A DNA stretch of 64,000 nucleotides, from contig JAMCUI010000004.1 in NCBI GenBank assembly GCA_023379265.1, forward strand, positions 9,273 through 73,272, given 5' to 3'. Origin of the DNA: Patescibacteria group bacterium (GTDB lineage Bacteria > Patescibacteriota > Microgenomatia > 2-02-FULL-39-11). Of this stretch, positions 3,822-60,285 are shown one piece after another. The stretch's first letter is position 1. Each line of letters opens with the position of its first letter. The notes under the pieces are model-generated. The model saw nothing but the letters and a program-made list of their open reading frames with translations. It was not told where the DNA came from and made no database searches. Position numbers and translations under genes: made by a program.

Positions 3822-6002
3822 GTGAAAAATAATATCATTTATCTAGTATTCATTTTTTTACTTATCCTTATCGTTTATTCACTAACCACTAGACTATTTG
3901 AAAAAACGCTTTTTGTCTCCACAAACGGAAGTGATAACAATTCCGGAACTTTCGGCAAACCGCTCAGATCCATTCAATATGCAGTAAATATCGCTACTGC
4001 CGGCACCACAATCCATATCCTACCCGGTACTTACAGGGAGTCTGTCACGGTATCAAACAGCGGAACAAAAGACTCTCCAATCACTTTATATGTTGCCCCT
4101 TCTGATAGAGGAAAAGTGATACTTGAAGGATCCGAACTTTCATCACAAATGATATGGCATAAATGCAATACCGTGAATTGTAAAAAAATTCCAGTGAATT
4201 CCGGACATGAAGTTTTTTTTACTCATCTGGATTGGAATGAAATACCTTATCAGATATATGAGAATATATCGGGAAGAGATTTATACCCATTACGTCTTGC
4301 TAGAACTCCAAATTATAACGTCACAACAGATTGGAAATTTCACCAGAACTGGTGGACCTCAGAAGATTCCTCTGAAAATAATAAAGTTTTGTCTGATCAC
4401 AAGCTGAAAAACATAGGTGATATCAACGGCGCTACAATAAACCTGATTGACGGTGGAACGCGTTGCGGAGAATTTTCATATTCCAGAGTTATAGATAATT
4501 TCAACGGACAAAAAGGCCAAATCATCTTTGATCAACCGGTAGGCTTCTCAATTTTCGGCTCCCAAGAAAACGGTATAAGCCAGTACACGAAATATTATGT
4601 CGAAAATAAACCACAATTTCTGGATGAAAAAGGGGAATGGTTCTATGACAAGAAAAGTGGAATACTTTATATCTGGCCATTGGAAGAGAAAAACCCAAAA
4701 AATCTTGACATCGAAATTTCAAAGAGATCCTTTGGATTGAACTTATCAAAAGCTTCAAACTTTATAGTAGACGGTTTGACTATCAAATATATAAACGAAT
4801 CAGATATATTTCACAACGAATCCTCTGCAGCAATCATTATTAATCCAGAAGAAAACTCTCAAGTTAAAAATATCAAGTTAGTGAACTTAGACATCAATCA
4901 TTCGTCAGCCGGAATTACTATCTCCAGCCCCTATAACTTATCTAGAGTAGAAAACATATCACTTACCAAAAGCAAAATTGACTATATTGATAAAAATGTC
5001 TTCGTTGCTGCTGCATCTTCACAATTCCCTTCAAATGTATCCAATATAACCATTAACGACTCTGATTTTGGATTTTCATCATTCCAAAACAACGATATCG
5101 GTCTTAGTTTTGTCAGAGTAAGCAACATCAAACTTGTAAATAATAAAATCCACGATTTTGCCAATTATCCAATCGTTTTTACCGGTTTTGAGAGAAATGA
5201 CGGTACCGTAAAAAACTTAGTAATAGAAAATAATTTTATAAATAATAATTGTCTAAATCTTTCAGCCTGTAGCTCGATAAAAATATATGGAGGAAAATTT
5301 TTAGATACACTCATAAAAAATAACATCATGGAGAATAATAAGGGTTGGTCTTATTGCCAGGAAGCAAAATATGGACAAGGTTATGCTCATGGAATATTCA
5401 TCAGCAATGCCAGCGGAATTACCGTCCAGAATAATATAATCTTAAACATGTCTGACATCGGTATTGAAATTTACCCGAGGCAAATTCCTACTACCAACAA
5501 CTACATTATAAATAACTTGATTAGTCGTTCTTCAACCGGAATAAATCTTGGTAACCCAAAAGATGCATTTGATTTGAATAAACTTGCACACAACACCAGA
5601 CATGACGGAGATATAATAAAAAATAACATTTTTCTGAATAATAATACCGCAATTAATATCGATCCAGCTGATTCAAACAGTATAGCAATTGACTACAGTG
5701 CCTATATCAACAATAAAAATGATATGATTTTCAGAAATGATCCGTTGATTTCTTTAAATTCCATTAGAAATGCTTTTCCTAAATGGGACATTCATTCTAT
5801 AGAAACAAATACTCAAGCATTCAGAAATGCAAAAAGTGGTGATTTTAATCTTTACTACACCAGTCCGCTTCGAGGAAAAGGAGAACCGCAATCCGGCAAT
5901 CCGTGGATCCAAGCCAACTTGTTTCTCCTGGGTCTGGCAAATGATATCGGTCCCTGCAAATTTTCCTGGGTGGGAAATACGTGCGCTGTTAACGGAAACT
6001 AG
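3822..6002 (+). CDS. right-handed parallel beta-helix repeat protein (pectin-lyase fold) with an N-terminal signal/anchor
   Basis: N-terminal hydrophobic segment MKNNIIYLVFIFLLILIVYSL. Repeated NNxIxNN-type beta-helix rungs (IENNFINNN, IKNNIMENN, VQNNIILN, IINNLISR, IKNNIFLNNN). Confidence 0.7.
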   Translation: MKNNIIYLVFIFLLILIVYSLTTRLFEKTLFVSTNGSDNNSGTFGKPLRSIQYAVNIATAGTTIHILPGTYRESVTVSNSGTKDSPITLYVAPSDRGKVILEGSELSSQMIWHKCNTVNCKKIPVNSGHEVFFTHLDWNEIPYQIYENISGRDLYPLRLARTPNYNVTTDWKFHQNWWTSEDSSENNKVLSDHKLKNIGDINGATINLIDGGTRCGEFSYSRVIDNFNGQKGQIIFDQPVGFSIFGSQENGISQYTKYYVENKPQFLDEKGEWFYDKKSGILYIWPLEEKNPKNLDIEISKRSFGLNLSKASNFIVDGLTIKYINESDIFHNESSAAIIINPEENSQVKNIKLVNLDINHSSAGITISSPYNLSRVENISLTKSKIDYIDKNVFVAAASSQFPSNVSNITINDSDFGFSSFQNNDIGLSFVRVSNIKLVNNKIHDFANYPIVFTGFERNDGTVKNLVIENNFINNNCLNLSACSSIKIYGGKFLDTLIKNNIMENNKGWSYCQEAKYGQGYAHGIFISNASGITVQNNIILNMSDIGIEIYPRQIPTTNNYIINNLISRSSTGINLGNPKDAFDLNKLAHNTRHDGDIIKNNIFLNNNTAINIDPADSNSIAIDYSAYINNKNDMIFRNDPLISLNSIRNAFPKWDIHSIETNTQAFRNAKSGDFNLYYTSPLRGKGEPQSGNPWIQANLFLLGLANDIGPCKFSWVGNTCAVNGN

Positions 6003-7396
6003 AAACTGTCCAAGATTCTTTGCAGTTTAATACTCACCTCCTCATCCTTTGCCGGATTTTGGGAAGAAAGGTCGCCTAATTCTTTTTTATCAGATCCTAA
6101 ATTATAAAGTTCATTTATATTAGTCTCCAAATCAGTAATAATTTTCCATCCGTCAGAAGTGATAAACGCCCTCTTAAATACCGCATAGCGATAATCTGTT
6201 TCGGAAAAAGCATCAAGATTCATCTTGCCGCCCTCCATAGCCGGAATTAGACTCACTCCTTGCATTTGTTTTTTTAATACATCATCGGGTGCAATATCCA
6301 ATACCGACAAAACTGTAGGCATGACATCTATACTACTAACTAAACTGTTAATTTTTACTCCGGAACTCATCCCGGGTACTGAAATTATTAAAGGCACATG
6401 AATAAGCTCCTGATAAAGGCTGTGGCCGTGGTCTATCTGCCCGTGGTCATACAATTCCTCGCCATGACCTGAGGTAAAAACAAAGATTGTTTTATCCATT
6501 AAACCCAATTTTTTGTATTCAGATAGAAATTTGGCGAGTTCTGTATCAGCACGCTGTAATTTCTCATCATATATCGCATTTAGAAATCTGACATCGTCCT
6601 TTGAAAGAAAAAGCTTTCCCTGGGCTAGACCGCTCTCACGAAGCTGAACCTCCTCATCTTTTGATCCCGTCAACTTACCTTTATAGGGAAAATCCAAAAA
6701 ACGGAAGTCATAACCGCCTTGGGGAACATATTCGCCATGGGTATCATAACCCTGAAGAAAGACAAAGAACTTATTTTCCTTGTGTGCTTTTATCCAATCG
6801 ATAGCCTTGGGATAGGTATATGGCAACCCGGCAAAATCCTTATCGTCAACATAGGTATCAAAACCAGCGCTGTAACCAAATTCACGGTTTACCGCAGCGC
6901 TTCCGGTAAATCCGCCTGTAGCATAACCGTTTTTCTTCAGAAATTCGGCAAAAGTAACAATGTCAGGCGCAAGCACCTTAAGATTGGAAATAATCTGAGA
7001 TCCCGGTGACAGAAGAGTGTATTTATTCAAAACTTTGTGTCTGGATGGATAAACTCCAGTCAACAAACTCATGTCAGCAGGAAGAGTCCAGGATGAAGCA
7101 CTGATATCGTTTGTAAAAGCGAAACCATGTGAGGCTAAAGAATCAATCGTAGGAGTAGTATCACGCATATACCCATATGAGTGGATATGATCCGCGCGAA
7201 GCGGATCCAAGACGATAAGCACTATATTACAATCACGGCAGGATATATCCGAAGGGTAATTTACTAACCTTGATTCATTTTTTCCCGAATGAAATACGGT
7301 GCTATAGATTACTGCTCCAGCAAGTATTAAAATTATAAAAGCAGCGATAATAACAAATTTATATTTCAAAGCGACACTGTCAAACCGCATCAGCAT
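5999..7396 (-). CDS. sulfatase-like / LtaS-family alkaline-phosphatase-superfamily enzyme, membrane anchored
   Basis: N-terminal TM segment. Motifs CNIVLIVLDPLRADH and SGHGEELYDHGQIDHGHSLYQELIHVPLII are typical of the sulfatase / phosphoglycerol-transferase fold. Confidence 0.7.
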   Translation of the reverse strand: MLMRFDSVALKYKFVIIAAFIILILAGAVIYSTVFHSGKNESRLVNYPSDISCRDCNIVLIVLDPLRADHIHSYGYMRDTTPTIDSLASHGFAFTNDISASSWTLPADMSLLTGVYPSRHKVLNKYTLLSPGSQIISNLKVLAPDIVTFAEFLKKNGYATGGFTGSAAVNREFGYSAGFDTYVDDKDFAGLPYTYPKAIDWIKAHKENKFFVFLQGYDTHGEYVPQGGYDFRFLDFPYKGKLTGSKDEEVQLRESGLAQGKLFLSKDDVRFLNAIYDEKLQRADTELAKFLSEYKKLGLMDKTIFVFTSGHGEELYDHGQIDHGHSLYQELIHVPLIISVPGMSSGVKINSLVSSIDVMPTVLSVLDIAPDDVLKKQMQGVSLIPAMEGGKMNLDAFSETDYRYAVFKRAFITSDGWKIITDLETNINELYNLGSDKKELGDLSSQNPAKDEEVSIKLQRILDSF

Positions 7397-7420
7397 ATAA
7401 AATTATTTTAGCATTATTTT

Positions 7421-8032
7421 ATGTCCATCAAACATCCAAGGAAAAAAACAACACCGCTTATTTTTCTTCTGTTCCTTGTTTTCTTTGCTTTATCCGCTTT
7501 TATTGTCACAATAATTTCACACTGCCAAAAAATTCAGTGTATTTCCATGGCTGATCTTCCTAAATACTCCCTGAAAGAAATCTACCAGAATACCAACAAT
7601 ATATACCGCGCGCTTTATACAAATGACAAGGATATACTTCGCGTCGAGATTAGGTCTGGAATAAACGAAACGGAAGCGCAAAAATCTATCGACGCACAAA
7701 CTGCCAGGATGGAAGCTCTTTTTGCCGATGCCACCTCGCCCTATCCCGGAGACATAACAAACGAGATAAGCTGCAACAGCAAATTCAAGCCGAAAATGGC
7801 AATAGAGAACATAAACGGAATAAGAATCACCCACTTTACAGGATACCTGAACAACAGGCTGACGTTTGGCGCATGTACAGATGACCAAGCTGTTAATAAA
7901 GGAATTGAAGCGTTATTTTATTGTTCTAGTCAACGAAAACTTTACCAAACAGAGATTATCGCTCCTACAAGTAAATTCAACTCAAATGAAAATTTCTATA
8001 ATGGAGTATTACATTCAATACGTTGTAAATGA
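7421..8032 (+). CDS. hypothetical membrane-anchored Cys-rich protein
   Basis: ORF with an N-terminal TM (LIFLLFLVFFALSAFIVTII). No recognisable motif. Confidence 0.45.
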   Translation: MSIKHPRKKTTPLIFLLFLVFFALSAFIVTIISHCQKIQCISMADLPKYSLKEIYQNTNNIYRALYTNDKDILRVEIRSGINETEAQKSIDAQTARMEALFADATSPYPGDITNEISCNSKFKPKMAIENINGIRITHFTGYLNNRLTFGACTDDQAVNKGIEALFYCSSQRKLYQTEIIAPTSKFNSNENFYNGVLHSIRCK

Positions 8033-8035
8033 TTC

Positions 8036-9604
8036 CTAAAAATATCCTGTTTTTATAAGTTTTTTTCTTTCCTCTTGATCCACCCATGCCGGAAACGGTT
8101 GGTTATCTTTCTGCTCATACACCGGTTGTTTATCAAGTATGGTATTTAATTTATTTTCCATTGAGGCAGCTATTCCTGGGTATTCGAAAATAACATTTTT
8201 TGTCTCATTATAATCATTATCCAGATTGTATAATTCACGCATTATATTGCCATTGAAATTCTGATTTATTATCAGCTTCCAATCCTTAGTCAAAATAGCC
8301 TGTTTACCTATCTGTAAACGTTGAGTAACAACATATTTATTCTCATAGGTAGAAAATAGATCATTCCCCTGAAATTGTGCGGGTGTGCTTATGCCCAAAA
8401 TATGAAATAATGAAGGAGCAATATCAATACTCTCTGCCAGTTTACCAATCACCTGTGGTTTTGCCCCCGGTATGTACATAATCAATGGTACATGAATCTC
8501 TTCGTTATATAAATCTGCACCGTGAGACCAATTACCGTGTTCCTGAAATTCTTCACCATGGTCAGCAGTGATTATGACTACAGTATTTTTCAGGAAATTT
8601 TTATCCTTAAGATATTGGAAAAACTTTTTCAGTTCAAAATCCAACTCATAAATTCTAGCCTCATAAAATGCTTGAATATACTTTCTTCTTTCATCTAGGG
8701 GGATATTTGAAAAAGCACTCATATAACTATCTACCCTTTCATCAAAAAACTGTGCGGTTTCAGCATATGATGACGAGTCGATATACTTTTGCGTATACAA
8801 TGTGAGAACATTACAATAATCTCCAGACGGATTTCCTTTTGGTATTAAATTTTTAATTCTATCAGGGTGTAGATTCATTAATTCTTCATAAGTCTTTTTA
8901 CATAAATCATTATATGAAATATAAGCAGTGGCGGGACCGTTATAAAATTTCTTAATGTCCTCTTTTTTGGGAATATATGGTATGTGTACCCAATATGAAT
9001 GAAGAAGAGCAAAGAATTTTTGGTCTCCTTTTATATCCTTATTCATATCAGCCATCCATGTTTGAGGGTCATCGGCAGATTCAATAAGTTTAAATCCTCT
9101 TCCCAATCCGCGATCCAATGGTTGGTTAATATCTCCTATGGAACTGGCATACATTGTCAGGTAACCGTTTTTTTGGAGTATCTGCGTCAATGTTACGATC
9201 TGGTTGCTTAAATTACTCACTAACGGAATAATCATTTTATGAGAAGATGGTAATAGGGAAGTGAAAATGGAAAATCGGTTATCCAAAGTATATGAACTCT
9301 GACTGTATGAATTTTTAAAAAGGAATGATTTGCTAGCAAAATCACAAAGGTTGGGAGCAGTATTTTTAATATACCCGTAGCAGGGTAGACTCTTGGCCCG
9401 CAGTGGAACGATGGTCATTAGTATCACGTTACAATCCTTACAGAAACCTTCTGGCAGTATATTTCTTTTTAAAAGATCAATTCCAAATATAGTCTTCAGG
9501 AAAAAAAATTGAAAAGCGGCAAATACCAGAATAAACGCAATAAAAGAAAAACCGACAATATATTTTTTACGGTGTTGTAACATTTTCCACTCAGTTAAAA
9601 ACAT
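8036..9604 (-). CDS. sulfatase-like / LtaS-family alkaline-phosphatase-superfamily enzyme (paralog of 5999..7396)
   Basis: N-terminal TM. Motifs CNVILMTIVPLRA and ITADHGEEFQEHGNWSHGADLYNEEIHVPLIMYIPG. Confidence 0.7.
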   Translation of the reverse strand: MFLTEWKMLQHRKKYIVGFSFIAFILVFAAFQFFFLKTIFGIDLLKRNILPEGFCKDCNVILMTIVPLRAKSLPCYGYIKNTAPNLCDFASKSFLFKNSYSQSSYTLDNRFSIFTSLLPSSHKMIIPLVSNLSNQIVTLTQILQKNGYLTMYASSIGDINQPLDRGLGRGFKLIESADDPQTWMADMNKDIKGDQKFFALLHSYWVHIPYIPKKEDIKKFYNGPATAYISYNDLCKKTYEELMNLHPDRIKNLIPKGNPSGDYCNVLTLYTQKYIDSSSYAETAQFFDERVDSYMSAFSNIPLDERRKYIQAFYEARIYELDFELKKFFQYLKDKNFLKNTVVIITADHGEEFQEHGNWSHGADLYNEEIHVPLIMYIPGAKPQVIGKLAESIDIAPSLFHILGISTPAQFQGNDLFSTYENKYVVTQRLQIGKQAILTKDWKLIINQNFNGNIMRELYNLDNDYNETKNVIFEYPGIAASMENKLNTILDKQPVYEQKDNQPFPAWVDQEERKKLIKTGYF

Positions 9605-11588
9605 CCAGAGGTTTTCCCTGAACGAAATCAGGTATTTTTACTTTAAGGGCTTTCATGATAGTCGGGTACTGGTCAATCTGAACTGCCGGCGTATCACCCA
9701 AAAAGTTGTTTTTCTTTATCCCCGGGCCGGCTATGATAAACGGGGTCCACATCCCCGGATCGTCCTTTGCCAGGATGGCCTGTTTATATCCGGTAATCAA
9801 TGGGGAAGTGAAAACCTTCAAATCGTTTGACATCTCTTCATTCCAACCATAACCCGGGGCATTGGCTATCACCAAATCACCAATTCTTGAAGGATCAAGC
9901 TGCATAAATCTTTTGGCATCCTCCCACTTCACCACCTCTGCCACCGGCTTACTGCCGTCTTCATCCTTCAAGTTTTCCAAAGCGTCGATCACCTGGTTTC
10001 GCAGATATTCATACTCCGGACCGGAGGCACGGTGATAGTCTCCGGCCAAACCGTTGGGGTTTATATAAACATGCGCCATTTTAAGATAAATCACTTTTGA
10101 GTTTTTCCAGTCGATATTCGGTTCTCCTGTTTTGGGATCAATGGTGAATTTCAACCAGCCTTTCTGGGCAAAAAGGTTATTCAGATTCACGTTCCGGTTC
10201 AAGGGTACGGCACCATGGTCGGAACTGAAAACGATAACCGTATTTTTGCCGGAGACTTTTAAGATTTCACCGACTATATTATCCAGCTTCTTGTACATAC
10301 CCCGCACTTCACCCCAAAGCTTTTCCCTTTCCTTATCGGAAATGTCTTTATAATGTATGCTTTTGGGGTCAACATAACCCATCCACCAGCGGCTGGTAAG
10401 CATCTGGTTGGGGGTATAAATGTCCTGAATGACGACATTTGGCGAAAAGTCCTTCACCATGGCGCTTACTGCTTTTGTATGCCACTCAAACGACATATCA
10501 GCCTCATCCATAAATGTCTTTTTATCCTCAGGGTAGTATACCAACTGGGCCGGGAAATTATCGGCAAAATCGATCATAGGACCAACTGAATTCTCCATCG
10601 CACTTGCTGCCTCTGGAGGCTGGGCAATATACTGGTTCAAGTTGTCATAGTCTATCCTGATCCTGAAAAATTTATCGCTTCCCAGTTTTATTACAGTCGC
10701 CTTAAAATGCGTATCAACCGGAATGTCCTTATCGGTGGTAACCCAATGTAAAGTAATGGGAAGCCACCCAGACCATTTGCCGGGTGTCAAATCCGCCAGA
10801 ACATCTTTCTTATCCAGGGAAAAGAGAACATGATCATAGTCCGTTTTACCATTATCCGTCGAATCATAAACGAAAGCGTAAACGGGAGTACCCCAACCAT
10901 CCATTTTCACCTCATAAGGAGGTGAGAAACTTTTGGGAGTATTAACCCACCCTGAAGGAGAAACAGAATCGATGTATTTAGTCAACTCAGCACCAAAGAA
11001 AAAAAGGTGGACCGCCCGGCCCTGTAGAACTCTCTGAAGGAGATTCCCCTTTGTCTCAAAGTTTATGGCATTAAAATCTGCACCCCAACCTCCCCATCTT
11101 CCTCTTATTACTACCCCTTTTTGGATCTCAGGAGGAGTAGATCCGGGAACTGATAATACCGCAACTTTCATACCGGCATCCTCAAGTGTCTTCCAAATTG
11201 CCGGCACCTTTCTGGCAACCGACCTGAAACCGCCTACTGCTACCTTATCAAGAGGACTGCCAATGGCATGCATGGGGCCGTCATCCACACCATTCACCTC
11301 GGGATAGGCACCCGTGAGAAGTGCGGCAAAATTGACGGGAGTATGGGAAGGAAAAGTGGGAAACGAATATCCATAAGAACCCATCTCCATCAACTTTTTA
11401 ATATTGGGAAGCTTACCTTCCTTGGCCCATTTATAGATATTAAATAGTCCCGGCTCGGCACGGACACCATCCGGAATAAACCAGTAAAGCTTGAGAGTGT
11501 TTTGAGGCTGAGTTTTTGGAGAAATAACCTTTGATACACCAAAAATAATAAGAATCAATAAGATAATAACTGCGGCTGTCTTCTTCAT
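9591..11588 (-). CDS. type I phosphodiesterase / nucleotide pyrophosphatase (NPP) family protein, alkaline-phosphatase superfamily; secreted or anchored
   Basis: Signal/anchor MKKTAAVIILLILIIFGV. Motifs LYWFIPDGVRAEP ... FPTFPSHTPVNFAALLTG ... VIVFSSDHGA. Confidence 0.65.
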   Translation of the reverse strand: MKKTAAVIILLILIIFGVSKVISPKTQPQNTLKLYWFIPDGVRAEPGLFNIYKWAKEGKLPNIKKLMEMGSYGYSFPTFPSHTPVNFAALLTGAYPEVNGVDDGPMHAIGSPLDKVAVGGFRSVARKVPAIWKTLEDAGMKVAVLSVPGSTPPEIQKGVVIRGRWGGWGADFNAINFETKGNLLQRVLQGRAVHLFFFGAELTKYIDSVSPSGWVNTPKSFSPPYEVKMDGWGTPVYAFVYDSTDNGKTDYDHVLFSLDKKDVLADLTPGKWSGWLPITLHWVTTDKDIPVDTHFKATVIKLGSDKFFRIRIDYDNLNQYIAQPPEAASAMENSVGPMIDFADNFPAQLVYYPEDKKTFMDEADMSFEWHTKAVSAMVKDFSPNVVIQDIYTPNQMLTSRWWMGYVDPKSIHYKDISDKEREKLWGEVRGMYKKLDNIVGEILKVSGKNTVIVFSSDHGAVPLNRNVNLNNLFAQKGWLKFTIDPKTGEPNIDWKNSKVIYLKMAHVYINPNGLAGDYHRASGPEYEYLRNQVIDALENLKDEDGSKPVAEVVKWEDAKRFMQLDPSRIGDLVIANAPGYGWNEEMSNDLKVFTSPLITGYKQAILAKDDPGMWTPFIIAGPGIKKNNFLGDTPAVQIDQYPTIMKALKVKIPDFVQGKPLDVFN

Positions 11589-12258: not shown

Positions 12259-12762
12259 TTAATTCCAATTAGTCAAACATGACGATATGTCCACTTCAGG
12301 AGCTGGGGTTACACCCACAGCTCCTTTAGACCATTCCACTTTTGCCGTAATCTTATACGCCACGGGAGTGGGAGTTATTGTTGCTACCGGTAACGGACAG
12401 TCAGCGGGATTAGAACCGGAAATTTGAAGCGATTGGCCATAAGTTCCTGTCGGTGTAACCGGAACCGGAGTAAGGCCGCTGTTTATGTAGCAAGAGGAAA
12501 AACAGTTAGTAGTGAGAGAGCCCAGTCCGCCCGAATCCCGTATCACTCTTGCACGCTCGATCTGTTGGTTGGCAAGATTGGTAGCGATGCTCTTATTTTC
12601 CGAAAAGATAGAATTTCGTATGGCATATAGTTCAATAGCTGTAATACCGGACATAAACAGTATGATAAGAGTCAGCGCTACCAATACTTCAATCAGTGTT
12701 TGACCGCGTGTTATCAGACCTGCCGAGTCGGAAGCAACTCCTGTGCTAACATCAATGATCAT
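12259..12762 (-). CDS. pilin-like protein with an extended leader (MIIDVSTGVASDSAGLITRG|QTLIEVLVAL)
   Basis: G-QTLIE variant of the prepilin motif plus a hydrophobic helix. Its 5' end lies inside the 78-bp tandem repeat. Confidence 0.6.
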   Translation of the reverse strand: MIIDVSTGVASDSAGLITRGQTLIEVLVALTLIILFMSGITAIELYAIRNSIFSENKSIATNLANQQIERARVIRDSGGLGSLTTNCFSSCYINSGLTPVPVTPTGTYGQSLQISGSNPADCPLPVATITPTPVAYKITAKVEWSKGAVGVTPAPEVDISSCLTNWN

Positions 12763-12975
12763 AAACTTTAATATCTAAGGACACGGTGTTATCAGACCTG
12801 CCGAGTCGGAAGCAACTCCTGTGCTAACATCAATGATCATAAACTTTAATATCTAAGGACACGGTGTTATCAGACCTGCCGAGTCGGAAGCAACTCCTGT
12901 GCTAACATCAATGATCATAAACTTTAATATCTAAGGACACGGTGTTATCAGACCTGCCGAGTCGGAAGCAACTCC
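12709..12975. repeat. 78-bp tandem repeat, about 3.4 identical copies, spanning the junction of two pilin genes
   Basis: Unit starts at 12709, 12787, 12865 and 12943. Each unit carries, on the - strand, TAG, a 12-nt spacer and ATG with 20 further codons, giving the mini-ORF MIIDVSTGVASDSAGLITPCP*. Confidence 0.9.
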
Positions 12976-34631: not shown

Positions 34632-35471
34632 ATGAAAATTGACGGCAGAAAAATCGCCTACGGAATAAAAAATAGCCTGAAGAAGCAGGTAAACATCATC
34701 CTTTCTCAAAATATTTCTCCTCATCTTGCGGTAATTATTGTCGGGAAGGATAAAAGTTCGCTTGCCTACGTCAGGCAAAAACAAATAACCGGCGCCGATA
34801 TTGGAGTAAAAGTATCTGTAATATCCTTTCCTGATAATCTGGCGCAAAATAAGCTTTTTTCAGAAATTGACCGATTGAACCAAGATCGGTCAGTCCATGG
34901 CATCATAATCCAAAGGCCTCTACCAATAACCGTAGACAATATAAAACTTGATAAGGCCGTAACTCCACAAAAAGATGTTGATGGCTTTCACAAAAATTCC
35001 TTATTCCGCCCGCCAATAGCCCTAGCCATAATGCATATATTACATAATATATTTAGCACTATAAAAAATGATAAAAATGAAAGTTTTTCCGGCTGGCTTT
35101 CAAAAAAGAAAATACTGGTCATCGGTAGGGGAGAGACTGGTGGTAAACCTATAGCAAATTATTTGATGAAAAATAATTTATCTATAACTATAGCTCATAG
35201 TAAAACAACCGACTTAAAAAGGGCGTGTCTTACCTCGGAAATTATCGTAAGCTGTGTAGGGAAGTCAAACATTGTGCGACATGATATGATAACAAATAAA
35301 ACAATCCTGATTGGAGTCGGACTGCACCCTGAGGATAACAAACTACGGTCTGATTATGATGAAGCTGAAATCGCCCAAAGAGCCGCTTTTTACACACCAG
35401 TTCCAGGAGGTGTAGGACCTGTTAATGTAGCATGTCTCTTTGAAAATCTAGTTAAAGCGTGTAAGATATAG
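34632..35471 (+). CDS. folD: bifunctional methylenetetrahydrofolate dehydrogenase / cyclohydrolase
   Basis: AYVRQKQ ... VIGRGETGGKPIANYL ... TPVPGGVGPVNVACLFENL. Confidence 0.9.
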   Translation: MKIDGRKIAYGIKNSLKKQVNIILSQNISPHLAVIIVGKDKSSLAYVRQKQITGADIGVKVSVISFPDNLAQNKLFSEIDRLNQDRSVHGIIIQRPLPITVDNIKLDKAVTPQKDVDGFHKNSLFRPPIALAIMHILHNIFSTIKNDKNESFSGWLSKKKILVIGRGETGGKPIANYLMKNNLSITIAHSKTTDLKRACLTSEIIVSCVGKSNIVRHDMITNKTILIGVGLHPEDNKLRSDYDEAEIAQRAAFYTPVPGGVGPVNVACLFENLVKACKI

Positions 35472-35628
35472 AAGATTTTACAGATCTACCGGACCTGTTA
35501 ATGTAGCATGTCTCTTTGAAAATCTAGTTAAAGCGTGTAAGATATAGAAGATTTTACAGATCTACCGGACCTGTTAATGTAGCATGTCTCTTTGAAAATC
35601 TAGTTAAAGCGTGTAAGATATAGAAGAT
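35415..35628. repeat. 76-bp tandem repeat x2.8 whose first copy is the 3' end of folD
   Basis: Unit starts at 35415, 35491 and 35567. The last copy is truncated. Confidence 0.9.
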
Positions 35629-36284
35629 TAATACCTCTTATCAATAAACTCCATTTTCCCGTTATCAATCTTTAAGTACTGACCATAACCCCAGCGAATA
35701 AAACCTGTATTTATATATCTCTCCCTTAAATTAAACTCAGCCAGATGACTGTGTCCGCATACCAAAACAGTATTTTCCGGAAGATTGCTATTTAACCATT
35801 TTCTCATCCGGTTATTCTGACTTTTATAATAACTAAGTAGCGGCTTGCCCAAAATGGCCAAAGGTATCTTTTCCCGCAAAAACTGGTAAGCAGCCGTCAG
35901 TATCCGGCCATGAGGCAACCACAAATACCTGTCGTCAGCAGCTGGAGCTATACGGCAACCGTGCTCTATATGCAGGATTTTACCTCCGGCTTTCATTTTA
36001 TATATGTTCCGCTGGCTGACCGAAAAAAGATTCAAACTTTTATCAGACAGGCTTTTCCGGTCATGGTTACCAAAAAGATAAATAGTTTCCCGGGATTTTA
36101 ACAAAGGGAATAATTTTTTCCAGCCGCTTTCGAGAAAATCATCAAGGCTAACAATATACCCATCCCAGAAATCGCCATTTATTATCACTCTATCGGCAGG
36201 AGTGATAAGTCTGGTAAGGAAATCAAATTTAGTCTTTTCAAACTTTTTTGTCAGATGAGTATCTGAAAACACTACGGAAATCAT
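35628..36284 (-). CDS. calcineurin-like metallophosphoesterase
   Basis: VFSDTHL, INGDFWD, GNHD and CGHSH motifs. I chose the internal Met (MISVVFSDTHL) to avoid overlap with the xer gene. Confidence 0.7.
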   Translation of the reverse strand: MISVVFSDTHLTKKFEKTKFDFLTRLITPADRVIINGDFWDGYIVSLDDFLESGWKKLFPLLKSRETIYLFGNHDRKSLSDKSLNLFSVSQRNIYKMKAGGKILHIEHGCRIAPAADDRYLWLPHGRILTAAYQFLREKIPLAILGKPLLSYYKSQNNRMRKWLNSNLPENTVLVCGHSHLAEFNLRERYINTGFIRWGYGQYLKIDNGKMEFIDKRY

Positions 36285-50088: not shown

Positions 50089-50175
50089 GCCGCGATGGTG
50101 GAATTGGCAGACACGCAGCTCTCAAAAAGCTGTGAGCCCAAAGCTCATGTCGGTTCGACTCCGACTCGCGGCACA
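50089..50175 (+). tRNA. tRNA-Leu(CAA), type II (long variable arm)
   Basis: Acceptor GCCGCGA/TCGCGGC, D-arm GTGG..CAC, anticodon stem CAGCT/AGCTG with loop CTCAAAA (anticodon CAA), variable-arm stem GAGC/GCTC, T-arm GTCGG-TTCGACT-CCGAC. Confidence 0.85.
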
Positions 50176-50240: not shown

Positions 50241-50307
50241 CTTCGATCCGACATAATGTCGGGCCTCAGTGTAGGCACGAATGTCACACGGTTGTCTAGC
50301 CCATCAT

Positions 50308-50612
50308 TCTATCACCTGAACTACAAAATCTATGCACTCTGTTCCGTTTCAGCTGTCTTTTCCATACTGTAGAACCTTATTCTATCACCTGAACTACAAA
50401 ATCTATGCACTCTGTTCCGTTTCAGCTGTCTTTTCCATACTGTAGAACCTTATTCTATCACCTGAACTACAAAATCTATGCGCTCTGTTCCGTTTCAGCT
50501 GTCTTTTCCATACTGTAGAACCTTATTCTATCACCTGAACTACAAAATCTATGCGCTCTGTTCCGTTTCAGCTGTCTTTTCCATACTGTAGAACCTTATT
50601 CTGTCACCTTTG
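50308..50612. repeat. 73-bp tandem repeat x4.2 covering the dnaB 3' end. Each copy encodes ...MEKTAETEQSA* on the - strand
   Basis: Unit starts at 50308, 50381, 50454, 50527 and 50600. Copies 1-2 versus 3-4 differ by a single synonymous change (AGT versus AGC). Confidence 0.9.
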
Positions 50613-51889
50613 AAAATAAGGTCTATCTCCCCCAAAGCTCCGTTTCTGTGCTTGGCGATTAGAAGCTTGACTATCTGATGATCCCATTTCTCCAACTCTT
50701 GCTCCTCACGGTATAGAAACATCACTACATCTGCATCCTGCTCTATGGCACCTGACTCACGAAGATCCGCCAACTGCGGCACCTTCGTACCTCTTGCTTC
50801 AACAGCACGTGAAAGCTGGGAAACAGCAAGTACCGGAATCTTTAATTCCCTGGCAAGATTTTTTAAGGATTGTGACACTATCGATACTTCCTGCACCCTA
50901 TTATCATACCGGCGGCCGGGGTCTACCAGCTGCAGATAGTCAACAATAAGAAGTTTCACGTTGTGACTTACCTGAAGCCGACGGGCCTTAGTCCTCATTT
51001 CAAAAAGATTTATACCCGGCGTATCATCAATAAAAATTGGCGCTTCGGATAGCTCCCCCATCGCTTCTGAAAGCCTAGTAAAATCATCATCATTTAGTCT
51101 GCCGGTTTTCAGCCTCCAGGCATCTACATCAGCCTGCGCTACAAGTAACCTATCTACTAACTCTTCCTTGCTCATCTCCAAAGAAAATATGCCGACAGCC
51201 TGCTTTTGCGCCAGCGAAACGTACTGGGCAATATTTAGGACAAAAGCTGTTTTTCCTTGTCCTGGACGGGCGGCTAGTATCACCAGGTTGGAATCCTGCA
51301 GTCCAGCCAATTTGTTGTCTAAATCGGAAAATCCTGTAGGCACGCCCCGAAGTGATGAACCTCTCTTGTGCAATTCATCCAGCCTGTCAAAGCTTTCCGC
51401 CAGCGCATCCTTCACCTGTACAAAATCCTGTCTTGATCTTTTCAGAGCAATGGACAATATGTCGCTCTCTGCTTTATCAAGAAGCATCTTTACATCCGAC
51501 TGGTCACCAAAAGCAGACTCACTTATCCTGCCTGAACTTTCGATGAGACGCCGCTTGACATAGTTATCCGTCACTATATTGCTGTATACCTCAATATTGG
51601 CAGAAGTGGGTACGACATTGGTCAGATCTGTCAGGTATGCTGTGCCTCCAACATCCTTGTATTTGCCCATTTTTTTCAGTTGTGAGGTAACAGTGACGAT
51701 ATCAACCGGCTCATGCCGCTCAAAAAGAGCCATCATCGCGGCATAAATATGATTGTGTGCATCCTTATAAAAAAATTCCGGCCTGAGGAAATCAACCACA
51801 TCTGCCAAAGCGTCTTTATCAATAAGTATGGCACCCAACACACTGGCTTCTGCCTGCTCATCATGAGGGGGTATTCTTGCTTCAGCCAT
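50549..51889 (-). CDS. dnaB: replicative DNA helicase DnaB
   Basis: Walker A ARPGQGKTAF, Walker B LLIVDYLQL, and DnaB N-terminal domain ILGAILID. Confidence 0.9.
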   Translation of the reverse strand: MAEARIPPHDEQAEASVLGAILIDKDALADVVDFLRPEFFYKDAHNHIYAAMMALFERHEPVDIVTVTSQLKKMGKYKDVGGTAYLTDLTNVVPTSANIEVYSNIVTDNYVKRRLIESSGRISESAFGDQSDVKMLLDKAESDILSIALKRSRQDFVQVKDALAESFDRLDELHKRGSSLRGVPTGFSDLDNKLAGLQDSNLVILAARPGQGKTAFVLNIAQYVSLAQKQAVGIFSLEMSKEELVDRLLVAQADVDAWRLKTGRLNDDDFTRLSEAMGELSEAPIFIDDTPGINLFEMRTKARRLQVSHNVKLLIVDYLQLVDPGRRYDNRVQEVSIVSQSLKNLARELKIPVLAVSQLSRAVEARGTKVPQLADLRESGAIEQDADVVMFLYREEQELEKWDHQIVKLLIAKHRNGALGEIDLIFKGDRIRFYSMEKTAETEQSA

Positions 51890-52075
51890 AGTTCAACTCC
51901 AGTGGAAATTTAACTAAAATTAAAAACTGCTCATCATGAGGGGGTATTCTTGCTTCAGCCATAGTTCAACTCCAGTGGAAATTTAACTAAAATTAAAAAC
52001 TGCTCATCATGAGGAGGTATTCTTGCTTCAGCCATAGTTCAACTCCAGTGGAAATTTAACTAAAATTAAAAACTG
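51854..52075. repeat. 73-bp tandem repeat x3 covering the dnaB 5' end (start codon plus the first 12 codons plus 5'UTR)
   Basis: Unit starts at 51854, 51927 and 52000. The third copy has a GGGGG to GGAGG change. Confidence 0.9.
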
Positions 52076-52087
52076 CTGTTTTGACGT

Positions 52088-57367: not shown

Positions 57368-58324
57368 ATGCTTTATGACTTCTCTAAAACCGTCCAAACA
57401 AAGACAATGCAGAAAATCTTATCCAAAAGTCATAATAGGGCGATCCTTGCTCTTATTGTCGCCAACAGTATCTGGGGTGCCGCCTCTCCTATATTCAAAC
57501 TGGCTCTTGAAAATATCCCGCCTTTTACCCTTGCTTTTTTCCGTTTTTTCGGCGCCATGGCAATCATTTTCCCTTTTGCCGTAAACGACTTCTGGATAAG
57601 GAAAAAAGACTGGCCCAACCTCATCTTCCTTTCCCTTTGCGGCATCACGGTAAACATCACTTTCTTCTTCTGGGGACTGCAGGAGGCTCCGGCTATAAAT
57701 GCGCCGATTATAGCTTCCTCTGGACCAGTATTTATATACCTTTTTGCAGTATTGTTTCTCAAAGAAAAACTCCACCCCAAAGTATTATCAGGAATAATGG
57801 TTGGCCTTACCGGAGTTCTAGCTATCGTCCTGCAACCAGTATTTACCCATGAGCCTGACGGGCGGATCCTGGGAAACATTTTCTTCGTCATTGCCACTCT
57901 GGGTACAGTAGGATATGTCATTTTCAGCAAAAAAATTGTGAAGTATTATAATGCTGCCACGCTCACTTTCTGGTCGTTTCTTATCGGCAGCCTGACGTTT
58001 TTACCCATGTTTATATGGGAAATGAGAAACCTCCATCCCTTTTACACGATCGATTACCGCGGTTGGATTGGCCTGGCCTTTGGCATATTCCTCTCCTCCG
58101 CTTTAGCTTATTTCCTTTATGAATGGAGTATAAAAAGTCTCCTAGCCCAGGACGTGGGAATATTTACATATATCGATCCGGTTGTGGCGGCAATTATTGC
58201 GGTACCACTATTGGGAGAAGTCATCACACCAATTTACCTCCTGGGATCATTTCTTGTCTTTGCCGGCATCTATGTAGCCGGGGGCCGTCTGCACTGGCAC
58301 CCGATACATTGGTTAAAGAGGTGA
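57368..58324 (+). CDS. DMT-superfamily (EamA-like) transporter
   Basis: 10 TM helices in two EamA-like halves. Start is taken at the ATG just after the hisS stop. Confidence 0.7.
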   Translation: MLYDFSKTVQTKTMQKILSKSHNRAILALIVANSIWGAASPIFKLALENIPPFTLAFFRFFGAMAIIFPFAVNDFWIRKKDWPNLIFLSLCGITVNITFFFWGLQEAPAINAPIIASSGPVFIYLFAVLFLKEKLHPKVLSGIMVGLTGVLAIVLQPVFTHEPDGRILGNIFFVIATLGTVGYVIFSKKIVKYYNAATLTFWSFLIGSLTFLPMFIWEMRNLHPFYTIDYRGWIGLAFGIFLSSALAYFLYEWSIKSLLAQDVGIFTYIDPVVAAIIAVPLLGEVITPIYLLGSFLVFAGIYVAGGRLHWHPIHWLKR

Positions 58325-58464
58325 CTTCTGCTGCACTGGCACCCGATACATTGGTTAAAGAGGTGACTTCTGCTGCACTGGCACCCGATACATTGGTTAA
58401 AGAGGTGACTTCTGCTGCACTGGCACCCGATACATTGGTTAAAGAGGTGACTTCTGCTGCACTG
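58289..58464. repeat. 42-bp tandem repeat x4.2 whose first copy is the 3' end of the DMT transporter gene (…LHWHPIHWLKR*)
   Basis: Unit starts at 58289, 58331, 58373, 58415 and 58457. Copies are identical. Confidence 0.9.
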
Positions 58465-58507: not shown

Positions 58508-58715
58508 GCCGGAATGGTGGAATTCTGCTTTACTTCACAGCCTAATCGGCCGGAATGGTGGAAACCGGCCGATTGACTCGGTAAAAGCTAATCACCAACC
58601 TCTGATTTACAACGTTCGGGAACTGGCCGGAATGGTGGAAACCGGCCGATTGACTCGGTAAAAGCTAATCACCAACCTCTGATTTACAACGTTCGGGAAC
58701 TGGCCGGAATGGTGG
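58508..58715. repeat. 77-bp repeated hairpin element (stem GGCCGG / CCGGCC, loop aatggtggaaa) x2.2, plus a partial copy upstream
   Basis: Unit starts at 58548, 58625 and 58702, with a partial copy at 58508. Confidence 0.85.
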
Positions 58716-58773
58716 AAGCAGGCTCGATTGCTACTCTTCCCTTCCTGCAAAATAAATGGTATAATCTACTTTT

Positions 58774-59082
58774 ATGAAAGCTAGTATACATCCTAAATGG
58801 TATCCTGATGCCACAGTCGTTTGTGCCTGCGGTAATACTTTTACTGTAGGTTCAACCAAACAAGCTGTCAGGGTCGAAATCTGCCATAAATGCCATCCTT
58901 TCTTTACAGGAGAGATGAAGTATGTCGATACCATGGGAAGGGTGGAAAAATTCCAGGCCAAGCAAAAACAGGCACAAGCTCAAATAGCCGTACTCGCTGC
59001 CAAAAAGAAAAAGAAACTGGAAAAACAAGCCCAGGAAAGAACCCCAAAAACTCTGCGGGAAATGCTGTTGGGAAATGGTTAG
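58774..59082 (+). CDS. rpmE: 50S ribosomal protein L31
   Basis: [10 protein letters not shown] ... CxC ... [10 protein letters not shown] zinc-ribbon signature. Confidence 0.9.
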
Positions 59083-59094
59083 ATTCGTATTAAA

Positions 59095-59190
59095 TTATTA
59101 GGTATTACGTATTAAGTATTGAATTAAGAGATAATTTTCCAAATACTTAATACTTGATACGTAATACTTAATACGATTTTTTTATTTATG
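59095..59190. terminator. long imperfect AT-rich palindrome built from gtattaagtattg / caatacttaatac units; a hairpin-capable element downstream of rpmE
   Basis: Inverted repeats read directly. Confidence 0.35.
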
Positions 59191-59255
59191 ATGTTGCAAT
59201 AATTGAAAGTTGGAGGAGCAGCAGTAGATACAAAAGTTAATTTTACTCACGGATT

Positions 59256-59640
59256 ATGAATAATGATATTGTTATATTAGAAATCCATGGGGCAACAGCT
59301 GACTCGGTCATTTTAGAAATCCATGGGGCAACAGCAGATATGTTAGTATAATTGTTTAACGGATTATGAATACTGACTCGGTCATTTTAGAAATCCATGG
59401 GGCAACAGCTGACTCGGTCATTTTAGAAATCCATGGGGCAACAGCTGACTCGGTCATTTTAGAAATCCATGGGGCAACAGCTGACTCGGTCATTTTAGAA
59501 ATCCATGGGGCAACAGCAGATATGTTAGTATAATTGTTTAACGGATTATGAATACTGACTCGGTCATTTTAGAAATCCATGGGGCAACAGCTGACTCGGT
59601 CATTTTAGAAATCCATGGGGCAACAGGTGGTGATGAAGCC
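59256..59640. repeat. nested tandem duplication of the release-factor gene 5' end. The outer unit is repeated 3 times and contains a 36-bp inner unit ([12 protein letters not shown]) present in 2, 4 and 2 copies
   Basis: Inner-unit starts at 59265 (variant), 59301, 59375, 59411, 59447, 59483, 59557 and 59593. Upstream mini-ORFs are 59256-59351 and 59366-59533. Confidence 0.9.
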
Positions 59641-60285
59641 AATATATGGGCTGCTGACCTCTTACGCATGTATATGCGTTTTGCCGCTTCCCGCAGCTGG
59701 AAGGTAGATTATCTGGACGGGGAAGTAATAAGAATAAAAGGCCCGCAGGCCTATACCCTTCTTCAGTTTGAAGGAGGAGTACATAGAGTACAAAGAATCC
59801 CCAAGACAGAAAGATATGGCAGAATTCATACTTCAACAGCCACAGTAGCGGTCTTACCGGAAATTGAAGAGACTCAAATTTATATAAACCCGCAGGATAT
59901 AGAATGGGACTTTTTCCGAAGCGGCGGACATGGCGGACAAAATGTCAACAAGGTCGCAACAGCAGTAAGGCTCAGACATAAACCTACTGGAATTGTGGTT
60001 TCTGCCCAAAGGGAGAGAAATCAGGAACAGAACCGCCGGATTGCCATGGGACTTCTTCGTTCCAAACTTTGGGAGATTGAAGAAGAGAAAAAAATGCAAA
60101 CACTGTCAAGCGCCAGATCCCTTATCGGCCGGGGTATGAGGGCTGAAAAAATAAGAACCTATAATTTTCCCCAAAACAGGGTAACTGATCACCGCATAAA
60201 CAAAAGCTGGCATAACCTGGAAGATATAGTCGAAGGGAAACTGGACAAGATGCTTTCTACTCTGTCTGAAGCCGCAAACCAATAA
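59548..60285 (+). CDS. prfA: class-I peptide chain release factor, RF1-like (PxT-type), lacking N-terminal domain 1
   Basis: [13 protein letters not shown]...[19 protein letters not shown] (PxT-type codon-recognition loop) and the GGQ motif [12 protein letters not shown]. An in-frame stop lies 6 codons upstream of the first copy of the start. Confidence 0.75.

Follow-up and report, generated by a model that had tools for sequence, protein, structure and literature searches.

A release factor 1 lacking domain 1 in Microgenomates, with tandem repeats over the start of its gene

The prfA gene found in a 64-kb stretch of Patescibacteria DNA (hereafter the window, meaning the whole stretch analysed) encodes a release factor 1 (RF1) made up of domains 2, 3 and 4 only, domain 1 being absent. 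Judged from its sequence, this domain-1-less RF1 is best described as a real, functional-looking and clade-wide natural variant of RF1, and the short gene is neither a pseudogene, nor a minor paralog, nor an oddity of one genome. The start of the gene lies among nested tandem repeats, and the reading that we favour and consider probable is that of a housekeeping, clade-wide domain-1-less prfA, with the repeats as mutational by-products of local tandem duplication. The features of the locus are as follows.

58774-59082 (+): rpmE, encoding ribosomal protein L31 (Pfam Ribosomal_L31, 1.1e-26), with a TAG stop
59096-59190 (+): AT-rich hairpin with a stem of about 27 bp followed by a U run, the likely rpmE terminator (fold -49.5 kcal/mol, z = -7.4)
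59249-59358 (+): start module 1, a copy of the prfA start that is older and has diverged (acggattATG...), with 1.6 36-bp units, read from the sequence
59256-59351 (+): mini-ORF of module 1, 31 aa
59359-59540 (+): start module 2, 182 bp, a decoy start with four 36-bp units (59373-59516), from the sequence and TRF
59366-59533 (+): mini-ORF of module 2, 55 aa, its TAA lying 14 nt ahead of the next ATG
59541-59626 (+): start module 3, where prfA truly begins (ATG 59548), its two 36-bp units lying at 59555-59626, read from the sequence
59548-60285 (+): prfA, the main ORF
59800-59808 (+): PKT tripeptide, the PxT 'anticodon' of RF1, residues 85-87
59932-59940 (+): GGQ catalytic motif of domain 3, its residues G129, G130 and Q131 invariant in 37 homologs

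The prfA product has 245 aa, or 233 aa without an extra repeat, and its ATG at 59548 follows an in-frame TAA three codons upstream. A first-pass annotation of this DNA had pictured an RF1-like factor without domain 1 that carries a PKT loop and a GGQ motif, and both the motifs, at the positions listed above, and the missing domain were borne out. Only the C-terminal half of the Pfam PCRF profile was matched (positions 99-194 of 194), the Pfam RF-1 domain was found at full length (3.8e-38), and the NCBIfam prfA models gave 326 and 315 bits over profile positions 103-342 of 347; with the alignment beginning at 103/347, domain 1 is absent. These scores stay below the equivalog cut-offs (326 vs 400 bits for NF001859 and 315 vs 423 bits for TIGR00019) because about 100 profile positions, those of domain 1, are missing. 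The same profiles place the protein in the RF1 class and not among RF2, PrfH or ArfB, the NCBIfam scores being 219 bits for prfB, 76 for PrfH and 54 for ArfB. The best PDB sequence match was the RF1 of Thermotoga maritima, from T. maritima residue 83 (254 bits), with 143 bits for RF2 and 56 bits for the PrfH structure 9MOR. Across the 37 aligned homologs Q82, P85, T87, E88, H94, T95, G27, G28 and E30 are also invariant, so that the invariant residues comprise the Pro and Thr of PxT, the Gln before it, the Thr of HTS, the GGxE at the tip of alpha-5, and GGQ. An AlphaFold (AF2) model calculated from this alignment (mean pLDDT 73.5) superposes on ribosome-bound RF1 of T. thermophilus and E. coli with a TM of 0.78; residues 1-12 of the model, the extra repeat, have a pLDDT below 50.

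The DNA upstream leaves no room for domain 1, as had been claimed, there being 173 nt between the end of rpmE and the first ATG of the repeat region (59256), with an in-frame TAA at 59238-59240, six codons 5' of that ATG. A separate ORF for domain 1 had been named as evidence that would speak against the annotation; profile hits and tblastn showed neither a domain-1-like ORF nor a second release factor gene within the 64-kb window. When RF2 or a second RF1 was sought by tblastn in the window and 85 loci, with approximate E. coli RF1 and RF2 sequences as queries, only the known gene was matched. The gene secA often adjoins prfB, and the ORF at 601-3426 was considered as secA and hence as a possible prfB neighbour; it gave no Pfam match and was set aside. 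The 53 long ORFs of the window end in TAA (26), TGA (14) and TAG (13), rpmE being among those with TAG. With all three stops in use, the standard code is in force and a working RF1 is needed, and by inference RF2 must also exist in this genome. Given the conserved residues and the use of TAG and TAA stops, the prfA product would be expected to carry out UAA/UAG-dependent peptidyl-tRNA hydrolysis.

The closest named relatives of the protein belong to Candidatus Gottesmanbacteria (CPR/Patescibacteria, Microgenomates), and the best 120 database matches are, every one, 221-253 aa long and 70-98% identical. The loci of 80 Microgenomates were surveyed, with one genome per species and 8-20 kb of each relative. 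In 57 of the 80 there is no room for domain 1, an in-frame stop lying at a median of 14.5 codons upstream, and the RF1 ORF at these loci opens with M-[NK]-x-D-x-[AV] immediately ahead of the ILE[IF]R strand. The other 23 (Levy-, Davies-, Curtiss- and Amesbacteria) carry an N-terminal extension of 54-92 aa with the motif LLxDPELxxLAxxEIxxLExQK, which aligns to residues ~54-98 of E. coli RF1 and is thus a remnant of domain 1. A same-strand L31 (rpmE) match lies directly upstream of the RF1 gene in 79 of the 80 related loci, indicating that the short and intermediate genes are orthologs at one locus from which domain 1 was lost stepwise; by inference, the full-length RF1 genes are orthologous at the rpmE-adjacent locus too. 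An exhaustive search of cluster representatives returned ordinary RF1s of about 355 aa, aligning from residue ~105-115, besides which there were a handful of short clusters and a number of intermediate length (256-330 aa), and the named members of the short and intermediate clusters were only Amesbacteria, Patescibacteria and some contig-end fragments. Curated RF1 models miss the short proteins, which are named just 'PCRF domain-containing protein', and no description of a natural domain-1-less RF1 in CPR was found in the literature searched, a limited full-text collection.

Set beside bacterial RF1 (PrfA; TIGR00019/PRK00591; T. maritima 1RQ0, T. thermophilus 70S 4V63), the window protein shares domains 2-4, over which it is 45-48% identical, and keeps the PxT loop, GGQ, the third-base Gln and Thr and the alpha-5 GGxE, whereas the whole N-terminal domain 1 (about 105 aa) is missing; relative to T. 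maritima RF1 it further has a deletion of about 10 residues in a domain-2 hairpin. Its domain content equals that of the engineered E. coli RF1 minus domain 1 cited in PMC1586002 (Mora et al. 2003). That protein was made in the laboratory, whereas the form in the window occurs naturally and is conserved throughout a lineage. PMC1586002 also reports that domain 1 is not required for stop-codon recognition or peptide release in vitro (Mora et al. 2003; Vestergaard et al. 2005), that RF1 without domain 1 works in vivo and that RF3 stimulation needs domain 1 (both Mora et al. 2003), and that the RF3 gene is absent from many small genomes. PrfH (RFH, TIGR03072), like the window protein, is a class-I release factor homolog naturally without domain 1. 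However, the codon-recognition loops of PrfH are altered and its gene always has an RtcB-like partner upstream (PMC1586002), whereas the window protein keeps the RF1 loops, adjoins rpmE and scores 76 bits against the TIGR03072 cut-off of 166.65. ArfB consists of a GGQ domain and a basic C-terminal tail and has no domain 2/4, while the window protein has the PCRF part of domain 2 and matches ArfB only over residues 109-144 (54 vs 100 bits). We propose that the helical, N-terminal domain 1 was lost from RF1 in Gottesmanbacteria and neighbouring Microgenomates, where the codon-reading superdomain 2/4 (PxT loop and alpha-5 tip) and the GGQ domain 3 would suffice for UAA/UAG recognition and peptide release, and where recycling of RF1 may be independent of RF3.

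The start of the gene had been described as occurring three times over, with two, four and two copies of a 36-bp unit. The units were confirmed, those of module 1 being a partial copy (59277-59298) and a whole one (59299-59334), but the head of module 1 is not a copy of the others, as 7 of its first 18 coding nt differ from modules 2/3 (MNNDIV vs MNTDSV), the modules being otherwise identical. MNNDIV is the N-terminus of the real RF1 in a further relative, L008. The exact unit is ctgactcggtcattttagaaatccatggggcaacag, and over 59277-59626 TRF gave period 36 (9.6 copies) and period 182 (1.9 copies, 100% matches). The two upstream mini-ORFs of 31 and 55 aa are present as annotated, and so is a repeat of variable length at the N-terminus of the real protein, in that one of the two units of module 3 is extra and lengthens the product by 12 aa. 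This 12-aa repeat is unique to the window protein among the 37 aligned. Database searches returned no exact record for the two mini-ORF products and no other record for the 245-aa protein, and the module junction, GCAACAGCAGATAYGTTAGTNTNATTGTTTAA, had 0 matches in JGI metagenome contigs. Scans of the modules for promoter or terminator consensus gave nothing over the shuffle background.

An older layer of duplication underlies these modules. In a syntenic relative (L001, GCA_964520615.1), whose flanks are 88-93% identical in nucleotides and whose protein is 98% identical, the 20.7-kb syntenic locus has none of the window's perfect tandem arrays, the hairpin at the matching place has a different sequence, and the TATAAT of the window junction is not conserved. 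Three diverged start-region copies, MNTDIAILEIRMSIYITEYEF, MNSDMVILKIKGGATADTLV and MNIHNDTVIMEIHEATADTLV, each closed by a stop, lie 5' of its 233-aa prfA, and two of the three use the junction of the window, caacag/cagataYgttagt...ttgtttaa. As the junction is common to both genomes, the higher-order duplication took place before the two lineages diverged, after which each reshaped the region in its own way; in copy c of L001 the original ATG is lost and a new in-frame ATG lies upstream. Three Logan short-read contigs break exactly within caacag/cagataYgttagt, as would be expected if a 31-mer were repeated in the reads. In an unrelated lineage (L047, 67% identity) a 42-aa decoy ORF beginning MNPDIAIMEFRPGPGGEED lies 133 nt upstream of prfA, a duplication that arose independently of that in the window and L001. 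In both the window and L047 the decoy and the real start differ mainly in the first ~8 codons and are identical over the next 8-10, a pattern that gene conversion, or else recombination with a divergent allele, might have produced. Mutagenesis of the DGR type was considered for the module head and rejected, the differences, by eye, not being adenine-specific.

The start had also been called hypervariable. It is fair to call it fast-evolving, its structure differing greatly between two related genomes. The remaining 55 of the 57 short-RF1 loci have no start copies above background, and the feature is thus sporadic and recurrent and not a conserved regulatory element. That the prfA start became duplicated twice independently (window/L001 and L047), and that all decoys are open ORFs starting with MN, could be a hint of selection.

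The repeats at prfA have counterparts elsewhere in the window. TRF reported seven long, near-perfect arrays in the 64 kb, with periods of 36/182, 42, 73, 73, 76, 77 and 78 bp and 2.4-4.2 copies each (1.9 for the 182-bp period) at 97-100% identity, copy numbers that may be unreliable as the perfect copies rest on one, probably short-read, assembly (GCA_023487465.1, contig JAMDBJ010000009.1). Every one of the seven lies at a gene end. By comparison, 637 kb of related loci held four small arrays, or 0.4 per 64 kb. Apart from prfA, the arrays are the following.

12708-12975 (-): 78-bp x 3.4 array across the start of one gene and the end of the upstream gene (TRF)
35415-35629 (+): 76-bp x 2.8 array over the 3' end of ORF 34632-35471 (TRF)
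50306-50609 (-): 73-bp x 4.2 array over the dnaB 3' end, its unit single-copy in L001 (TRF)
51854-52077 (-): 73-bp x 3.1 array over the dnaB start, with two 26-aa mini-ORFs (MAEARIPPHDEQ...) (TRF)
58289-58464 (+): 42-bp x 4.2 array over the 3' end of an EamA transporter gene, single-copy in L001
58548-58730 (+): 77-bp x 2.4 array upstream of rpmE (TRF)

The array over the dnaB start triples the ribosome-binding site, the ATG and the first 12 codons, an architecture like that at prfA, and the array at 12708-12975 likewise repeats a gene start. A direct repeat of 13-14 nt (aggtgaYagaat) borders the array at the 3' end of dnaB. The units share no sequence beyond chance 7-9-mers and have no dispersed copies. 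Of the eight duplicated units, seven extend across the end of a gene or occupy intergenic DNA, and the sole internal one, of 36 bp, is a multiple of 3, although for units of such lengths placed at random the probability of lying entirely within a CDS is ~0.82. This gene-sparing placement looks like purifying selection on real DNA and speaks against pure assembler noise. The MIRU-VNTR minisatellites of mycobacteria are tandem units of 40-100 bp at gene boundaries, with small ORFs overlapping the flanking starts and stops and with copy numbers that vary between strains, and the window arrays are likewise at gene boundaries with small ORFs. However, MIRUs are a dispersed family of related sequences, and in contrast to such MIRU/REP-like families the window arrays each amplify their own local unique sequence, with unrelated units.

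We suggest that an old tandem duplication of a start segment of about -35 to +45, common to the window genome and the related species, was overlaid by a very recent, slippage-type amplification of the 36-bp and 182-bp units, and that the amplifications at prfA would be part of a genome-wide burst of local tandem duplications, which may survive only where one intact gene copy stays, as is the case at gene ends and for in-frame units. As a result, prfA would be preceded by two decoy starts, each opening a short ORF, and its product would gain an extension of 12 disordered residues at the N-terminus, the place to which domain 1 is joined in other bacteria. The decoy mini-ORFs and the extension are probably near-neutral.

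The strongest competing explanation, though one we regard as unlikely, is that the perfect copies, or their numbers, are assembly artefacts in all seven arrays, a de Bruijn loop having been traversed arbitrarily where there are truly fewer or single copies. The perfect arrays are indeed seen in one assembly only and are lacking from the syntenic locus of L001, neither the 245-aa protein nor the mini-ORF products are on record from anywhere else, and a MAG of neighbouring accession (L065), which judging by its accession prefix belongs to one and the same deposit, has a SPAdes-style contig name. Five of the seven periods fall at 73-78 bp, near common k-mer sizes, a clustering that simple random slippage leaves unexplained. 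Yet seven of eight units disrupt no gene and the internal one is in frame, for which random placement would give ~0.18^7; some copies differ by 1-2 bases (97-99% identity); the direct repeat flanking the dnaB 3' array is what real slippage predicts; and the diverged prfA copies in L001 and L047 cannot be artefacts.

It could be envisaged that the decoy modules form a regulatory leader in which termination at a uORF is coupled to translation of prfA, so that the release factor regulates itself and copy number tunes dosage, and we hold this to be quite improbable. Window and L001 alike have 14 nt between the uORF stop (TAA and TGA, respectively) and the start that follows, every decoy copy in the three genomes is an open ORF beginning with MN, copy c of L001 has lost the original ATG but has a new in-frame one upstream, and the duplication arose independently in L047. 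However, the feature is missing from 55 of the 57 short-RF1 loci of other species, the uORF stops vary (TAA, TGA, TAA) with none being the RF1-specific TAG, and L047 bears no relation to the other two genomes in spacing or intervening sequence. Furthermore, a matching architecture is found at dnaB and another window gene, ORFs of ~20 codons are fairly often open by chance, and the modules hold no consensus promoter or terminator signal. The autoregulatory +1 frameshift of prfB (RF2) is likewise a case of a release factor gene with a 5' stop codon able to sense termination capacity, but prfA in the window is without a frameshift site and its start repeats are not conserved across the clade, so that prfB serves as an analogy for the leader alone. 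A broader proposal, of a CPR phylum with domain-1-less RF1, RF3-independent termination and altered stalk contact, in some lineages of which a uORF-feedback leader with copy-number dosage has been selected, seems to us just as doubtful as the leader itself.

The first-pass annotation had ended on contingency-like variation, which would make prfA a phase- or size-variable locus in which selection favours changes in the number of 36-bp units as a means of varying the N-terminus of RF1 or of switching the gene on and off. Nested perfect repeats do lie at the prfA start, and the repeat structure is very different in two genomes with 88-93% flank nucleotide identity. In contrast, the 36-bp unit is 12 codons long and causes no frameshift, each module has its own start and stop, and the extra 12 aa are predicted to be disordered and sit where other bacteria tolerate a whole domain. 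The window protein is the one of the 37 aligned that has an N-terminal repeat, 55 of 57 loci are without start copies, and six other arrays of unrelated units are spread over the window, pointing to a genome-wide process. The suggestion was therefore not upheld, and we consider it very unlikely.

Least credible of all is that the short prfA is a secondary paralog or decaying copy, with a full-length prfA elsewhere doing the work, for although the DNA in view amounts to 64 kb of the source genome and 8-20 kb per relative, and the product scores under the NCBIfam equivalog cut-off (326 vs 400 bits), identity is 70-98% clade-wide with every catalytic and decoding residue invariant, the rpmE-prfA synteny is common to lineages still holding part of domain 1, the graded N-terminal lengths (~0, 54-92 and ~105-115 aa) argue for loss in situ, and no second release factor gene was seen in the window or the 80 related loci, ~640 kb in total.

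Domain 1 of class-I release factors contacts RF3 and the L11/L7-L12 stalk. To our knowledge, its dispensability has so far been called only from engineered E. coli truncations. A natural clade shedding domain 1 stepwise, from full length through a 54-92-aa remnant to none, would be an evolutionary confirmation of that dispensability, and it opens to testing whether CPR, with their reduced translation apparatus, lack the contacts with RF3 and the stalk or have rewired them. Curated models that miss the short RF1 can distort inferences of completeness and genetic code for CPR genomes. The repeat burst, if real, would mark a strain with an unusual rate of tandem duplication and would offer a clear view of where duplications are tolerated.

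The tandem copies of the prfA start were found to be 100% identical to one another except directly after the ATG, where 7 of 18 bases differ (window 59260-59277 versus 59370-59387). The variant module heads encode MNNDIV and MNTDSV respectively, and each of these is the real RF1 N-terminus in relatives. This difference, set amid complete identity and with both forms in genuine use, suggests that the heads arose through recombination or conversion between alleles rather than through drift. An independent decoy copy of the start, giving a short ORF, was present in the distant Microgenomates locus L047, and long AT-rich inverted repeats were located directly 3' of rpmE in the window, in L047 and in the syntenic locus L001:

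L047 3850-3978, decoy copy of the prfA start
Window 59096-59190, inverted repeat 3' of rpmE
L001 9665-9790, inverted repeat 3' of rpmE
L047 3765-3845, inverted repeat 3' of rpmE

The L047 decoy encodes an ORF of 42 aa that resembles the RF1 N-terminus over its first 18 residues; the decoy shares 31 identical nt with the real prfA start, and many differing sites fall in the first ~25 nt. The three inverted repeats are unrelated in sequence but alike in architecture, each being a terminator-like hairpin made of short 7-nt repeats.

Besides the prfA array, six near-perfect tandem arrays were identified in the window:

12708-12975
35415-35629
50306-50609
51854-52077
58289-58464
58548-58730

Their periods range from 42 to 78 bp (73-78 bp in five of all seven window arrays). 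All six lie at gene ends, their units are mutually unrelated, and array density is ~17x that of related genomes. This pattern points either to a burst of duplication specific to the strain or to an effect of assembly. In the array at 51854-52077 the dnaB start is triplicated, yielding two identical 26-aa mini-ORFs (window 51882-52035, - strand; MAEARIPPHDEQFLILVKFPLELNYG), the stop of each overlapping the following ATG (ATGGCTGA). Adjoining the dnaB 3' array is tRNA-Leu(CAA) (50089-50174), the sole tRNA within the 64 kb; this stretch has only 85% identity to L001, where its neighbours are rearranged.

Elsewhere in the window, three clustered sulfatase/type I phosphodiesterase family genes (5999-11588) were unexpected for a small CPR genome, and a Pfam search at 1e-5 gave no match for two large ORFs:

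601-3426 (-), 941 aa
3822-6002 (+), 726 aa

The related loci L006, L008, L013 and L015, together with many other CAY*/CAZ* MAG records, are titled 'uncultured Gammaproteobacteria' or 'Pseudomonadales', and in one case 'Clostridia'. In both RF1 and synteny they are nevertheless of the Microgenomates type, and thus these public taxonomy labels look wrong.

Finally, the prfA protein (window 59548-60285) lacks ~10 residues of the domain-2 hairpin around residues ~56-60 when compared with T. maritima RF1, the gap in the alignment reading LD.......G..E.V. The reduction of this RF1 therefore extends beyond domain 1.
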